Source: a virus (lineage: Duplodnaviria > Heunggongvirae > Uroviricota > Caudoviricetes). Taken from it: a DNA stretch of 64,000 nt. Below the pieces are notes generated by a model. The model was not told the origin of the DNA and did not search any database. It saw nothing but the letters and a program-made list of their open reading frames with translations. Shown in pieces: positions 6,356 through 12,415 of the stretch. The position numbers and the translations under genes were made by a program. Within the stretch, counting starts at the first letter, position 1. Every line of letters starts with the position of its first letter. The DNA lies in IMG/VR virus record IMGVR_UViG_2529292913_000008; one strand, 5' to 3'.

Positions 6356-7912
6356 ATGACAAGTATTCAACAACGTGCAGAACTTCATCGCCAGATCTGG
6401 CAAATTGCTAACGATGTCAGGGGTTCAGTCGATGGATGGGATTTTAAGCAGTACGTTCTGGGCGCGCTTTTTTATCGTTTTATCAGCGAAAATTTTTCCA
6501 GCTATATGGAAGCCGATGATGACAGCATCTGTTATGCAGCACTGGATGACAGCGTAATTACTGATGACATTAAAGACGATGCCATCAAAACCAAAGGCTA
6601 CTTCATCTACCCAAGCCAGCTTTTCTGCAACGTAGCTGCGAAAGCAAATACCAATGACAGACTGAATGCAGATTTAAACAGTATCTTCGTTGCTATCGAA
6701 AGTTCTGCTTACGGCTACCCTTCAGAAGCAGACATCAAAGGTTTGTTTGCTGATTTCGATACCACCAGTAACCGCCTGGGTAACACCGTTAAAGATAAAA
6801 ATGCCCGCCTGGCTGCGGTTCTGAAAGGGGTTGAAGGGTTAAAACTTGGTGACTTCACCGAACATCAGATTGATCTGTTCGGTGACGCCTATGAGTTCCT
6901 GATTTCTAACTATGCCGCGAATGCCGGTAAGTCCGGCGGCGAGTTCTTTACACCGCAGCACGTCTCTAAGCTGATTGCACAACTGGCTATGCACGGGCAG
7001 ACCCACGTTAACAAAATCTACGACCCGGCAGCAGGCTCCGGTTCGCTGTTGTTGCAGGCTAAAAAACAGTTTGATGACCATATCATCGAAGAAGGTTTTT
7101 TTGGTCAGGAAATCAACCATACGACCTATAACCTGGCGCGTATGAACATGTTTTTGCACAACATCAACTACGACAAGTTTGATATCAAGCTGGGCAATAC
7201 GCTGACTGAACCACACTTCAGAGATGAAAAACCGTTTGATGCCATCGTTTCTAACCCGCCGTATTCGGTGAAATGGATTGGCAGCGATGACCCGACGCTG
7301 ATTAACGATGAACGTTTTGCCCCGGCTGGCGTTCTGGCCCCCAAATCAAAAGCTGACTTCGCCTTTGTACTACATGCGCTGAACTATCTTTCTGCCAAAG
7401 GTCGTGCTGCGATTGTTTGCTTCCCGGGTATTTTTTACCGTGGCGGCGCGGAGCAGAAAATCCGTCAGTATCTGGTTGATAATAACTATGTCGAAACCGT
7501 GATTTCACTGGCACCGAACCTGTTCTTTGGCACCACCATTGCCGTAAACATTCTGGTGTTGTCTAAACATAAAACAGATACAAAAGTTCAGTTTATTGAC
7601 GCCAGCGAACTATTCAAAAAAGAGACCAACAACAATATCCTGACCGATGCCCATATCGAACAGATTATGCAGGTATTTGCCAGCAAGGAAGATGTTGCTC
7701 ATCTGGCGAAATCAGTCGCGTTTGAGACCGTTGTTGCTAATGACTATAACCTGTCGGTGAGCAGCTATGTTGAAGCGAAAGATACTCGCGAAATTATCGA
7801 TATCGCTGAGTTGAATGCAGAGCTGAAAATCACGGTCAGCAAAATCGACCAGTTGCGTAAAGATATTGATGCGATTGTGGCTGAAATTGAAGGCTGCGAG
7901 GTGCAGAAATGA
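6356..7912 (+). CDS. hsdM: Type I restriction-modification methyltransferase subunit HsdM (Type IC, EcoR124-like)
   Basis: 518 aa, NPPYS motif, near-identical to EcoR124I HsdM as recalled; stop overlaps hsdS start. Confidence 0.97.
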
Positions 7913-9177
7913 GCGAGTTGAGTTATCTGGAAAAATTGCTGGATGGGGTTGAGGTTGAGTGGAAACCCTTGAAGGATGTTTGTGATTTTAAAAATGGATT
8001 TGCATTTAAAAGCAGCTTATTTAAAGAAACTGGGTTACCGATAGTTAGAATCACAAATATAGATGGATTTAATGTTGACTTAGATGAGGTGAAATACTTT
8101 TCACTAAATGATTACAAGGAAGATTTATCCTCCTTTGAGGTATCTATGGGAAATATATTGATTGCAATGTCAGGTGCCACTACAGGAAAAGTGGGAATTT
8201 ATAAAAAAGGAACAAAATGTTATCTTAACCAACGGGTTGGAAAATTCATACCCAAAGAAAATATTCTAAACAATAATTATTTATACCATTTTTTATTGTT
8301 AAATACAGAGACTATTTATATCCTCGCCGGGGGCGGAGCACAACCGAATCTAAGCTCAAATGCATTGATGTCAAAACTACTCATCCCAATTCCCTGCCCG
8401 GATAATCCGGAAAAATCCCTCGCCATCCAGTCTGAAATCGTTCGGATTCTGGACAAATTTACTGCACTTACCGCTGAGCTTACCGCTGAGCTTACCGCTG
8501 AGCTTAACATGCGTAAAAAACAGTACAACTACTATCGCGACCAGTTGCTGAGTTTTAAAGAGGGTGAGGTTGAGTGGAAGGCATTGGGAGAAGTAGCCAA
8601 AATACAACGTGGGGCATCCCCCAGGCCAATTGTTAATTATCTTACTGAACAAGGAAATGGTATCCCATGGATTAAAATCGGAGATACTATCCCCGGCTCT
8701 AAATACATTGACAAAACCTTACAAAAAATAACTGCAGAGGGTGCCCAAAAATCGCGAATCTTGAACCCCGGTGATTTCGTCATTTCTAACTCTATGAGCT
8801 TTGGCAGACCATATATTTTAAGGATAACCGGAGCTATCCATGATGGATGGGCATCAATCAGCAATTTTGGTGAAAAATTAAATGCTGATTATCTGTATCA
8901 CTATCTTTCATCAAAAAAGGTGAAAAATTATTGGGAAAGTAAAATCAATAGCGGGTCGGTCAGTAACTTGAATGCAGATATTATAAAAACATTACCAGTG
9001 CCATTGCCTGATAAACAGAAACAAGAGCGAATATCTGCTCTGCTCGATAAATTCGACACCCTGACCAACTCCATCACCGAAGGTCTCCCGCGTGAAATCG
9101 AGTTGCGCCAGAAACAATACGAGTACTATCGTGACTTACTGTTCAGTTTCCCGAAACCTGAAACTGTCAGTAATTAA
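7909..9177 (+). CDS. hsdS: Type IC specificity subunit HsdS with two divergent target-recognition domains and a three-copy TAEL central repeat
   Basis: 422 aa; N-terminal, central and C-terminal conserved blocks match EcoR124 HsdS, both variable domains differ from my recollection of it; variable regions are AT-rich. Confidence 0.95.
8467..8502 (+). repeat. 3 x 12 bp perfect tandem repeat CTTACCGCTGAG encoding (TAEL)3 in the HsdS central spacer
   Basis: read directly: 8467-8478, 8479-8490, 8491-8502 identical. Confidence 0.95.
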
Positions 9178-9298: not shown

Positions 9299-12200
9299 AT
9301 GACTCATCAGACACACACTATTGCTGAATCCAATAACTTTATCGTCCTTGATAAGTACATCAAAGCTGAGCCAACAGGCGACAGCTACCAGAGCGAATCG
9401 GACCTGGAACGTGAACTGATTCAGGACCTGCGGAATCAGGGCTATGAATTTATATCCGTAAAATCTCAGTCGGCTATGCTGTCCAATGTTCGGGAACAGC
9501 TTCAGAGCCTCAATGGTGTGGTGTTTAATGACAGCGAGTGGCGGCGTTTCACGGAGCAGTATCTGGACAACCCGAGCGATGGCATTCTGGATAAGACCCG
9601 TAAAATCCATATCGACTATATTTGCGACTTTATTTTTGACGACGGGCGTCTTGAGAACATCTATCTGATAGATAAAAAGAATCTCATGCGCAACAAAGTG
9701 CAGATTATCCAGCAGTTTGAACAGGCAGGTTCTCACGCTAACCGTTATGACGTAACTATCCTGGTTAATGGCTTGCCTCTGGTGCAAATCGAACTGAAAA
9801 AGCGCGGCGTGGCGATTCGTGAGGCTTTCAACCAGATACATCGTTACAGTAAAGAGAGTTTTAACAGCGAAAATTCCCTGTTTAAGTATCTGCAACTGTT
9901 TGTCATTTCTAACGGCACCGATACCCGTTACTTTGCCAACACCACAAAGCGCGATAAAAATAGTTTTGACTTCACCATGAACTGGGCGAAATCAGACAAC
10001 ACGCTGATTAAAGACCTCAAAGATTTTACCGCTACCTTTTTCCAGAAACATACTCTGCTGAATGTTCTGGTGAACTACAGCGTTTTTGACAGTAGTCAGA
10101 CGCTACTGGTGATGCGACCGTACCAGATTGCCGCCACCGAGCGCATTCTGTGGAAAATTAAGAGCTCCTTTACAGCGAAGAACTGGTCAAAACCGGAAAG
10201 CGGTGGGTATATCTGGCACACCACGGGTTCCGGTAAAACCCTGACCAGCTTTAAAGCCGCGCGTCTGGCAACAGAACTGGACTTTATTGATAAAGTTTTC
10301 TTTGTGGTCGACAGGAAAGACCTCGATTACCAGACCATGAAGGAATATCAGCGTTTTTCGCCAGACAGCGTCAACGGCTCGGAAAATACCGCAGGTCTTA
10401 AACGAAATCTGGATAAGGACGATAACAAAATTATCGTCACCACTATTCAGAAACTTAATAACCTGATGAAAGCAGAAAGCGACCTGCCTGTATACAATCA
10501 GCAAGTGGTGTTTATATTTGATGAATGTCACCGCAGCCAGTTTGGAGAAGCACAGAAAAACCTGAAGAAGAAATTCAAACGCTATTATCAGTTTGGTTTT
10601 ACCGGCACACCTATTTTCCCGGAAAACGCCTTAGGCTCAGAAACGACCGCCAGCGTATTTGGCCGTGAATTGCATTCATATGTTATTACCGATGCGATTC
10701 GTGATGAAAAAGTGCTTAAATTCAAGGTGGACTACAACGATGTGCGGCCACAGTTTAAGTCTTTAGAGACAGAAACTGACGAGAAAAAACTGAGTGCGGC
10801 TGAAAATCAGCAGGCGTTCCTTCATCCCATGCGTATTCAGGAAATTACGCAATATATCCTGAATAACTTCCGCCAGAAAACCCACCGTACTTTCCCTGGC
10901 TCCAAAGGTTTTAATGCCATGCTGGCAGTGAGCAGCGTGGATGCCGCGAAAGCCTATTACGCGACGTTTAAACGGTTACAAGAGGAAGCCGCTTATAAAT
11001 CTGCTACCTATAAACCACTACGTGTTGCGACAATCTTCTCCTTTGCCGCTAATGAAGAACAAAATGCCATTGGTGAAATTTCCGATGAAACTTTTGATAC
11101 CAGCGCAATGGACAGCAGTGCTAAAGAGTTTCTCGACGCTGCAATTCGTGAATATAACAGCTATTTTAAAACTAACTTCAGTACCGACAGTAACGGTTTT
11201 CAGAACTACTATCGTGATTTAGCCCAACGGGTTAAAAATCAGGATATCGATCTGTTAATTGTCGTTGGGATGTTTTTAACCGGCTTCGACGCTCCAACAT
11301 TGAACACGCTATTCGTCGATAAAAACTTGCGTTTTCACGGCCTGATGCAGGCATTCTCCCGCACCAACCGCATTTATGACGCGACTAAAACCTTCGGTAA
11401 TATCGTCACGTTCCGGGATCTGGAACGCTCAACCATTGATGCCATAACGCTGTTTGGTGACAAAAATACCAAAAATGTGGTTTTAGAAAAGAGTTATGCA
11501 GAGTATATGGAAGGCTTTACTGATGCTGCCACTGGTGAAGCTAAACGCGGCTTCATGACAGTAGTTTCAGAACTGGAACAACGGTTCCCTGACCCTACCA
11601 GTATTGAAAGTGAAAAAGAGAAGAAAGACTTCGTTAAACTGTTTGGCGAATACCTGCGTGCCGAGAACATCCTGCAAAACTATGATGAATTTGCCACGCT
11701 AAAAGCCCTGCAACAAATCGATCTTAGCGATCCTGTTGCGGTAGAAAAATTCAAAGCAGAACATTATGTGGATGATGAAAAGTTCGCTGAATTGCAAACA
11801 ATTCGTCTCCCTGCTGATCGCAAGATTCAGGATTATCGTTCTGCCTATAACGATATTCGCGACTGGCAGCGCCGTGAGAAAGAAGCTGAGAAAAAAGAGA
11901 AATCAACCACTGACTGGGATGATGTAGTTTTTGAGGTCGATTTGCTGAAGTCTCAGGAAATAAACCTGGATTATATCCTTGGACTGATTTTCGAACACAA
12001 CAGACAAAATAAAGGCAAGGGCGAAATGATCGAAGAGGTCAAACGCTTAATTCGTTCAAGCCTGGGAAACCGGGCGAAAGAGGGCCTGGTGGTCGATTTT
12101 ATTCAGCAAACGAACCTGGATGATTTACCAGACAAAGCCAGTATCATTGAGGCATTCTTTACGTTTGCTCAACGCGAACAGCAACGTGAAGCAGAAGCAT

Positions 12201-12415
12201 TGATAAAAGAAGAAAACCTCAATGAAGAAGCAGCAAAACGCTATATTCGCACGTCTTTAAAACGCGAATACGCCACCGAAAATGGCACAGAATTAAACGA
12301 AACATTACCAAAACTTAGTCCGTTGAATCCGCAATATAAAACGAAAAAACAGGCAGTTTTCCAGAAAATCGTCTCGTTTATTGAGAAGTTTAAAGGCGTA
12401 GGCGGAAAAATATAG
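9299..12415 (+). CDS. hsdR: Type I restriction endonuclease subunit HsdR (Type IC)
   Basis: 1038 aa from ATG 9299 (AAAGGA upstream), [14 protein letters not shown]... near-identical to EcoR124I HsdR as recalled; helicase motifs GSGKT and DECH. Confidence 0.97.

Follow-up and report, generated by a model that had tools for sequence, protein, structure and literature searches.

A complete Type IC restriction-modification cassette of the EcoR124 family in a P1-like phage-plasmid, with a third TAEL repeat probably gained in situ

The prototypes of the Type IC restriction-modification systems, EcoR124I and EcoR124II of plasmids R124 and R124/3, are encoded in the gene order hsdM-hsdS-hsdR. The assignment of such systems to families rests on sequence, on complementation and on cross-reaction of antibodies. 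The number of TAEL repeats in the specificity subunit HsdS is tied to the spacer length of the target or to the methylation interval, as described for EcoR124I/II and for EcoDXXI/EcoR124 hybrids (PMC3874165; PMC12707154); the methylated adenines in the Type IC bipartite target are 7 or 8 bp apart, and three TAELs correspond to 8 (PMC3874165, Table 1; PMC12707154). EcoR124II has three copies of the 12-bp TAEL repeat, and the Type IC systems EcoDXXI (plasmid pDXX1) and EcoprrI also have three (PMC3874165). The EcoDXXI locus lies between P1 sequences: phd/doc precedes it, and the pap-proximal region follows it downstream. EcoprrI carries prrC between hsdS and hsdR. In P1-like elements, the variable region between pmgT and humD has been described in the literature (PMC9603915), and the Type I system of pSvP1 has already been published (PMC6906374).

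We analysed an hsd cassette in a window of 64,000 nucleotides, i.e., the whole stretch of DNA under study; its features are summarized in Table 1. The three genes are full-length and unbroken, are arranged in the same order as in EcoR124I/II, and no prrC is present. HsdM matched the EcoR124 HsdM (7bst_D) with 1142 bits and about 98.5% identity (8 substitutions in 518 residues by alignment count against the PDB chain), together with the profiles TIGR00497 (646 bits) and Pfam N6_Mtase and HsdM_N. HsdR matched 2w00_A over its full length with 2288 bits and about 99% identity (approximately 11 substitutions in the part of the alignment displayed), and also matched Pfam HSDR_N, SWI2_SNF2, T1R_D3-like and EcoR124_C (241 bits) and TIGR00348 (766 bits). 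These values bear out the sequence-only reading, which had regarded both subunits as near-identical to the enzymes of plasmid R124, and they place HsdM and HsdR close to the EcoR124 subunits, as expected of Type IC by sequence. The hsdR reading frame opens at a GTG codon (9239), and the start equivalent to that of EcoR124 is the ATG at 9299. The catalytic motifs are in place in both proteins: the AdoMet-binding DPAAGSG (residue 223) and NPPY (residue 300) of the methyltransferase, and QIELK (163), GSGKT (310) and DECH (408) of HsdR, covering the PD-(D/E)xK and DEAD-box motifs. Judged by sequence, the cassette is a complete restriction-modification system of the EcoR124 family (Type IC), and it is probably functional as a restriction-modification enzyme. 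The M2S complex would methylate adenines in a bipartite target set by two exchangeable target-recognition domains (TRDs), and the R2M2S complex would translocate on, and then cut, unmodified DNA.

Table 1. Features of the hsd cassette and its borders (positions in the window).
Feature	Positions	Strand	Description
Lineage-restricted filler	5875-6250		Separates the diverged hot/upf region from the cassette; absent from P1 and outside the common cassette
Presumed hsdM-hsdS promoter region / conserved upstream leader	6251-6355	+	Homology resumes at 6251
hsdM	6356-7912	+	N6-adenine methyltransferase subunit, 518 aa
hsdS	7909-9177	+	Specificity subunit, 422 aa; start overlaps the hsdM stop (ATGA)
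TRD1 (N-terminal), AT-rich	7963-8382	+	20.7% identity to EcoR124I TRD1; GC 0.324
Central conserved (dimerisation / coiled-coil) block	8383-8577	+	61/61 identical to EcoR124I barring the extra TAEL
Tandem array of 12-bp unit CTTACCGCTGAG	8467-8506	+	3.3 copies, encoding (TAEL)3; TRF: period 12, 100% matches
TRD2 (C-terminal), AT-rich	8578-9042	+	25.2% identity to EcoR124I TRD2; GC 0.387
hsdS-hsdR intergenic region	9178-9298	+	Promoter-like TTAACA-18-TATTTT, 9205-9234 (consensus scan)
hsdR	9299-12415	+	Translocase/endonuclease subunit, 1038 aa from ATG 9299
Cassette 3' tail	12416-12490	+	Hairpin with 10-bp stem (12432-12459), no T-run

HsdS showed the Type IC layout, in which the protein starts and finishes inside a conserved D2 block and a TAEL-bearing central block lies between two TRDs. 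It matched the EcoR124 HsdS (7bst_A) over its full length (E = 5e-83), and two Methylase_S domains were recognized by Pfam. Against EcoR124I, 17 of 18 residues in the N-terminal block and all 44 in the C-terminal block were identical, so that the conserved blocks as a whole are 94-100% identical to those of EcoR124I/II, and neither TRD is related to its counterpart there (21% and 25%), in agreement with the earlier claim that the blocks are kept and the two TRDs differ. The AT-richness of the TRDs relative to their flanks, also claimed, was evident from the GC content, which is 0.46-0.48 in the conserved blocks of HsdS (hsdM, 0.458; hsdR, 0.439). The presence of two variable regions stood, but their limits, previously given as residues 20-150 and 215-350, were corrected to approximately residues 19-158 and 224-378.

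Unlike EcoR124I/II, the present system is carried by a P1-like phage-plasmid, which belongs to the porcine-ETEC lineage of pSvP1 and ETEC1731, and the cassette lies in the variable region between pmgT and humD. The common core of the cassette spans 6251-12490. On the left side, homology with the AW1.7 plasmid and phage 673R5 resumes at 6251, and approximately 800 plasmids share the last 105 bp or so leading up to hsdM. The segment before these is confined to the present lineage; its short ORFs had no Pfam match, and the RefSeq relative has no annotated gene there. On the right side, P1 homology resumes at 12491, corresponding to P1 nt 84482, a position at which the P1 record notes a match to what lies downstream of the hsd loci of EcoDXXI and R124/3. 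An identical P1-derived sequence follows hsdR here and in EcoR124, and the P1 flanks are those of the EcoDXXI locus. The description of the locus as an island is not supported in that form; it is the canonical Type IC cassette, in a P1 context that has already been annotated for EcoDXXI and R124/3.

A promoter for hsdM-hsdS is presumed to lie in the conserved leader (6251-6355), where the consensus scan gave no strong sigma-70 match. The hsdR gene of EcoR124 has a separate promoter. Here, a gap of 121 bp precedes hsdR, and the promoter-like match in it agrees with 9 of 12 consensus positions, in a scan for promoters and terminators whose totals were no higher than in shuffled sequence, so that we draw no conclusion on regulation from it.

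The closest relatives of the present HsdS are WP_001293041.1 (P0001; pSvP1_F and ETEC1731 plasmid unnamed6) and WP_054626026.1 (E. coli AW1.7 plasmids), in which the TRDs and conserved blocks are 100% identical to those in the window. These relatives have two TAELs and 418 residues, whereas the HsdS in the window has three, at residues 188-199, and 422 residues. The 418-residue version was found on 91 + 21 contigs, and two units are present in each of the four finished plasmids that carry this TRD pair, pSvP1 among them, as in every other public copy of the pair, so that the 'distinct HsdS' is not a special allele as far as its TRD pair is concerned. The exact 422-residue HsdS was absent from approximately 15 billion sequences, and no three-TAEL protein sharing either TRD was found among the best 120 database matches. 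The sequence-only reading had missed the third TAEL repeat, which is the sole feature unique to the present copy.

The surrounding 8 kb of pSvP1_F is otherwise identical to the window: the 12-bp unit at 8467-8478 is the sole difference over 8,091 bp, with no mismatches. That the additional unit is an artefact of assembly or consensus, or belongs to a minority subpopulation of a plasmid that really has (TAEL)2, might be suspected from this solitary difference and from the fact that the three-repeat allele of this TRD pair is otherwise unseen. We consider this very unlikely, because the inserted 12 bp reproduce the repeat unit exactly and keep the reading frame, the 40-bp array is much shorter than any read length, and typical long-read errors are homopolymer indels of 1-2 bp; moreover, natural pairs with one, two or three copies occur in other TRD backgrounds, and central regions with three units are frequently found in E. 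coli (87 records with at least 99% identity over the full length). Alternatively, the repeat could have been acquired by recombination with a three-repeat Type IC hsdS, given that three-repeat central blocks of near-identical sequence circulate widely and that the exchange of TRDs implies frequent recombination in these blocks. However, over 8 kb the flanks do not differ from those of pSvP1_F or ETEC1731 by even one substitution, and any gene-conversion tract would have had to stay within a stretch that donor and recipient share letter for letter; this origin is quite unlikely. We thus prefer an in-situ and recent gain, in which slippage or unequal crossing-over would have converted (TAEL)2 to (TAEL)3. 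On the precedent of EcoR124I and EcoR124II, the additional repeat should lengthen the target spacer by +1 relative to that of the sibling plasmids, and the interval between the methylated adenines should go from 7 to 8 bp. The effect of a third TAEL has been demonstrated only with the EcoR124 and EcoDXXI TRDs. Restriction alleviation in Type IC systems, through control of assembly, makes such a switch survivable (PMC12707154). To the reading as a whole, namely a complete EcoR124-family cassette in a P1-like phage-plasmid with shuffled, unrelated TRDs, an in-situ change from (TAEL)2 to (TAEL)3 and a spacer extended by one, we assign a probability of roughly 0.78. The further proposal that this would be a very recent natural specificity switch of the EcoR124I-to-II type, from N(n) to N(n+1) through a single 12-bp expansion, stands in our estimate at even odds.

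Both TRDs are widespread on plasmids and chromosomes. At least 25 HsdS proteins whose second TRDs are unrelated have a TRD1 with 99-100% identity to the present one, and in three proteins (P0059, P0078 and P0081) this domain sits in the C-terminal position instead. For TRD2, at least 30 HsdS proteins with unrelated first TRDs matched at 98-100% identity, including one found on 140 contigs (P0033). Domain shuffling, as proposed from the sequence, is supported by this recurrence of each TRD at 98-100% identity with many unrelated partners in public sequences, and the present TRD pair would have been assembled via modular recombination across the conserved blocks.

Since neither TRD is related to the TRDs of EcoR124I/II, the target is expected not to be GAA-N6/7-RTCG, with half-sites predicted to differ from GAA and RTCG. 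Identity of both TRDs with those of a characterised HsdS was excluded for EcoR124I/II by direct alignment (21% and 25%), as the earlier prediction required, and indirectly for EcoDXXI and EcoprrI, both of which have three TAELs, as no three-TAEL protein with these TRDs was found among the best 120 database matches; the EcoDXXI and EcoprrI TRDs evidently differ from the present ones in sequence. Transfer of half-sites from distant homologues was rejected for both the EcoKI S subunit (match to TRD1, E = 4e-4) and M. jannaschii 1yf2 (match to TRD2, about 30% identity), as these are too distant. We also considered whether TRD1 is the abundant domain of pIP1206 (AM886293, motif CCAG-N6-RTTG); a tblastn search with TRD1 gave just 19 enterobacterial plasmid records with at least 80% identity, indicating that it is not.

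It is nevertheless a substantial possibility, at somewhat less than even odds, that the specificity has already been characterised, in that REBASE may hold a methylome-derived motif for the TRD pair or for the single TRDs, in which case the novelty would be limited to the spacer variant. The allele with two TAELs occurs widely (112 contigs and 4 finished plasmids), as does each TRD; many finished E. coli genomes are derived from PacBio data, and the ST101 study shows that motifs of such plasmid Type I systems are routinely assigned through REBASE. On the other hand, no published recognition sequence for these TRDs was found in the searchable literature, including the ST131, ST101 methylome and pan-methylome papers, and TRD1 was present at 95% identity or more in only 10 plasmid records.

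With regard to restriction activity in the lineage, hsdR of ETEC1731 is interrupted by IS1203, and hsdM/hsdR are fragmented in phage 673R5. As close relatives often have an inactivated hsdR, selection for restriction in the present lineage may be weak. These disruptions, the proximity of the cassette to phd-doc in related plasmids and the loss of res-mod from P1-like elements of the present group are consistent with a cassette that is mainly modification-only, an addiction or stability module, or silent, instead of an active restriction barrier. We regard such a role as unlikely, because all three genes are full-length here with intact catalytic motifs, and the hsdR sequence does not differ from that of the unbroken copy in pSvP1_F.

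The Type IC system itself is textbook, and nothing mechanistically new is involved; the site of the cassette, the right junction and the TRD pair (on more than 100 public contigs) were known already, and only the third TAEL is unique here. In its Type IC cassette and its junctions, the pmgT-humD hotspot of P1-like elements agrees with the loci known from EcoDXXI and R124/3. The plasmids, being base-for-base identical over the cassette and differing in TAEL copy number alone, constitute a natural experiment, and a methylome contrast with pSvP1 or ETEC1731 strains would reveal the half-sites and show whether the one-repeat-equals-one-base-pair rule extends to another pair of TRDs, the third. Sibling phage-plasmids can present different restriction barriers, which bears on the spread of such resistance-carrying elements. 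If our reading is correct, the switch arose on a background identical over 8 kb to that of sibling pig plasmids from other continents. Together with the one-, two- and three-copy pairs found elsewhere, this would mean that TAEL slippage repeatedly diversifies restriction barriers in the manner of phase variation, and this diversification would span near-clonal P1-like phage-plasmids as well as chromosomal Type IC loci.

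The window represents a P1-like phage-plasmid, and its first 25,000 nucleotides (1-25000) were 99.9% identical to the E. coli ETEC1731 plasmid unnamed6 and to pSvP1_F. When the window was mapped onto P1 by pairwise BLAST, the hsd genes fell within a non-P1 segment (see the table). The P1 counterpart of its right junction is nt 84482, where the P1 reference record annotates a match to "sequence downstream of the EcoDXXI hsd locus" and also to "R124/3 sequence downstream of hsdR"; the same record notes that the phd/doc segment matches the sequence preceding the EcoDXXI locus on its upstream side. 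An EcoDXXI-type left junction, with the cassette (from window position 6251) directly adjoining phd, is present in the AW1.7 plasmid and in phage vB_EcoM-673R5. About 105 bp 5' of hsdM are common to about 800 plasmids, and 5875-6250 is confined to the lineage of the window. P1-like elements have been described as variable in the pmgT-humD interval (PMC9603915), and replacement of pmg genes by a Type I restriction-modification segment has been described in pSvP1 (PMC6906374). These reports, together with the shared junctions, indicate that the island is a canonical Type IC cassette in a documented setting.

Features of the window (HsdS block identities are to EcoR124I HsdS, 7bst_A)
Feature	Coordinates	Strand	Description
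P1 lpa-pdcBA-doc-phd-humD-lxr	1-3204		97.5% identity to P1
IS10	3205-4533		1329 bp; private to this copy
IS10 transposase ORF	3218-4426	minus	
hot/upfONM-like segment	4981-5874		only 82% identity to P1
Non-P1 segment	5875-12490		in place of pmgV-pmgU-pmgT; absent from P1
hsdM	6356-7912		518 aa
hsdS	7909-9177		422 aa; ATG overlaps hsdM stop as ATGA
HsdS N-terminal block			17/18 identical
HsdS TRD1	7963-8382		20.7% identity; GC 0.324
HsdS central block			61/61 identical, extra repeat ignored
12-bp repeat (TRF)	8467-8506		3.3 copies, 100% match
HsdS TRD2	8578-9042		25.2% identity; GC 0.387
HsdS C-terminal block			44/44 identical
hsdR	9299-12415		1038 aa from ATG 9299
Hairpin after hsdR stop	12432-12459		perfect 10-bp stem, CTTGCGGGTT / AACCCGCAAG, without T-run
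P1 homology, resumed	12491 onward		98.4% identity
Terminator-like hairpin with T-run	12609-12631	plus	first canonical one; 195 bp downstream, in P1-derived sequence
pmgS homologue	13259-14463	minus	two overlapping ORFs, 190 aa and 228 aa
Three tRNA genes	25964-26039, 28245-28398	minus	Met-CAT, Thr-TGT, Asn-GTT

Several features around the cassette were also recorded. IS10 splits an lxr-like gene, with a 9-bp target duplication (AGCCCAGCA), and is missing from the ETEC1731 and pSvP1_F plasmids. The hot/upfO/upfN/upfM-like patch adjoining the cassette is mosaic, as its flanks show 97-98% identity to P1. The 376 bp at 5875-6250 belong neither to P1 nor to the common cassette; a query including them (5875-6355) was covered to at least 80% by only 29 plasmid records, their three overlapping ORFs of 64-74 aa gave no Pfam match, and no gene is annotated at this position in the RefSeq relative. 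The pmgS gene, split in the window, is also labelled 'frameshifted' in ETEC1731 by RefSeq; pSvP1_F, AW1.7 and P1 each have it intact (420 aa). The tRNA genes are expected of a P1-family genome.

The three hsd ORFs were found exactly where the sequence-only reading had placed them. The mechanically called hsdR ORF starts at GTG 9239, and a start at ATG 9299 gives a protein that aligns with EcoR124 HsdR over the full length. In PDB chain searches, HsdM matched 7bst_D (1142 bits; 8 of 518 residues substituted) and HsdR matched 2w00_A (2288 bits; about 12 substitutions), and the NCBIfam profiles were TIGR00497 (646 bits) and TIGR00348 (766 bits), respectively. Pfam domains were N6_Mtase and HsdM_N in HsdM, two copies of Methylase_S in HsdS, and HSDR_N, SWI2_SNF2, T1R_D3-like and EcoR124_C in HsdR. 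The catalytic motifs of HsdM (DPAAGSG and NPPY) and HsdR (QIELK, GSGKT and DECH) were all present. The restriction subunit is often broken in close relatives: IS1203 lies within hsdR of ETEC1731 (window equivalent, approximately 10116-10124), and hsdM and hsdR are annotated as fragments in vB_EcoM-673R5. Neither the copy in the window nor that in pSvP1_F is disrupted.

The block identities and the GC contents (0.46-0.48 in the conserved HsdS blocks, 0.458 in hsdM and 0.439 in hsdR) bear out the description of HsdS as retaining its conserved blocks with two divergent, AT-rich target-recognition domains (TRDs), although the domain limits proposed earlier were slightly off (actual limits, approximately aa 19-158 and 224-378). 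Domain shuffling had also been proposed. When 5.8 billion protein clusters were searched, 7,995 relatives were retrieved, and per-domain BLAST on the best 120 showed TRD1 at 99-100% identity in at least 25 proteins with an unrelated second TRD and TRD2 at 98-100% identity in at least 30 with an unrelated first TRD, as in relative P0033 (140 contigs). DNA searches likewise gave half-gene matches, in hundreds of plasmids and chromosomes, so that modular exchange across the conserved blocks can be observed directly. TRD1 further occupies the C-terminal slot of P0059 (100% identical), P0078, P0081, P0107 and P0112 (range, 87-100%), indicating that the module moves between gene slots, not merely between alleles. 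Modular reassortment across the conserved blocks was shown experimentally for Type IC enzymes decades earlier (PMC3874165).

Four finished plasmids carry this TRD pair, and in each of them the match is 1257 bp rather than 1269 bp; the alignment showed three copies of CTTACCGCTGAG, the 12-bp unit encoding TAEL, in the window versus two in these plasmids. Across 5210-13300 (8,091 bp), one 12-bp unit was the sole difference from pSvP1_F, with zero substitutions, and likewise from ETEC1731 when its IS1203 was set aside. The 418-aa, two-TAEL form was found in 91+21 contigs, and the exact 422-aa HsdS was absent from about 15 billion catalogued sequences. Three-unit central blocks with other TRDs are common (87 E. 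coli records and 62 plasmids at ≥99% identity over the full length), and other TRD backgrounds also include pairs that differ in copy number: P0058 (426 aa, 49 contigs) and P0068 (422 aa, 47 contigs), P0005 and P0007, and P0090 and P0100. The most economical explanation for the third repeat is a single in-situ event, in which slippage or unequal crossing-over would have added one unit to two. Conversion of EcoR124I to EcoR124II is the same kind of event. How a cell with an intact hsdR survives such a specificity switch is explained by the restriction alleviation of Type IC systems, in which assembly of the R subunit is controlled.

Direct comparison of the TRDs ruled out the specificity of EcoR124I or EcoR124II. 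EcoDXXI and EcoprrI each have three TAELs (PMC3874165); they were excluded only indirectly, by TAEL count, best database matches and the negative exact-sequence look-up, and no three-TAEL protein sharing either TRD was found among the best 120 of the 7,995 relatives. The literature searched yielded no recognition motif for these TRDs. Given how common the two-TAEL allele is among finished genomes, the chance of a methylome-derived motif being on record already is substantial. EcoR124I (two TAELs) recognizes GAA-N6-RTCG and methylates adenines 7 bp apart, EcoR124II (three TAELs) has an N7 spacer with methylated adenines 8 bp apart, and EcoR124/EcoDXXI hybrids obeyed the same rule (PMC3874165; PMC12707154). 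The window enzyme is predicted to share both half-sites with the pSvP1, ETEC1731 and AW1.7 enzymes and to have one additional base in its spacer.

The sequence-only reading was thus right in its observation and in the kind of interpretation, but the distinct standing it gave this HsdS was not borne out, since public databases and one published plasmid already contain this pair of TRDs. The cassette is ordinary: its family is very well understood, the hotspot it occupies is known, and the allele is new solely through a third TAEL repeat against an otherwise unchanged background. The repeat allows a clean prediction that can be tested, but it adds nothing new to the biology.
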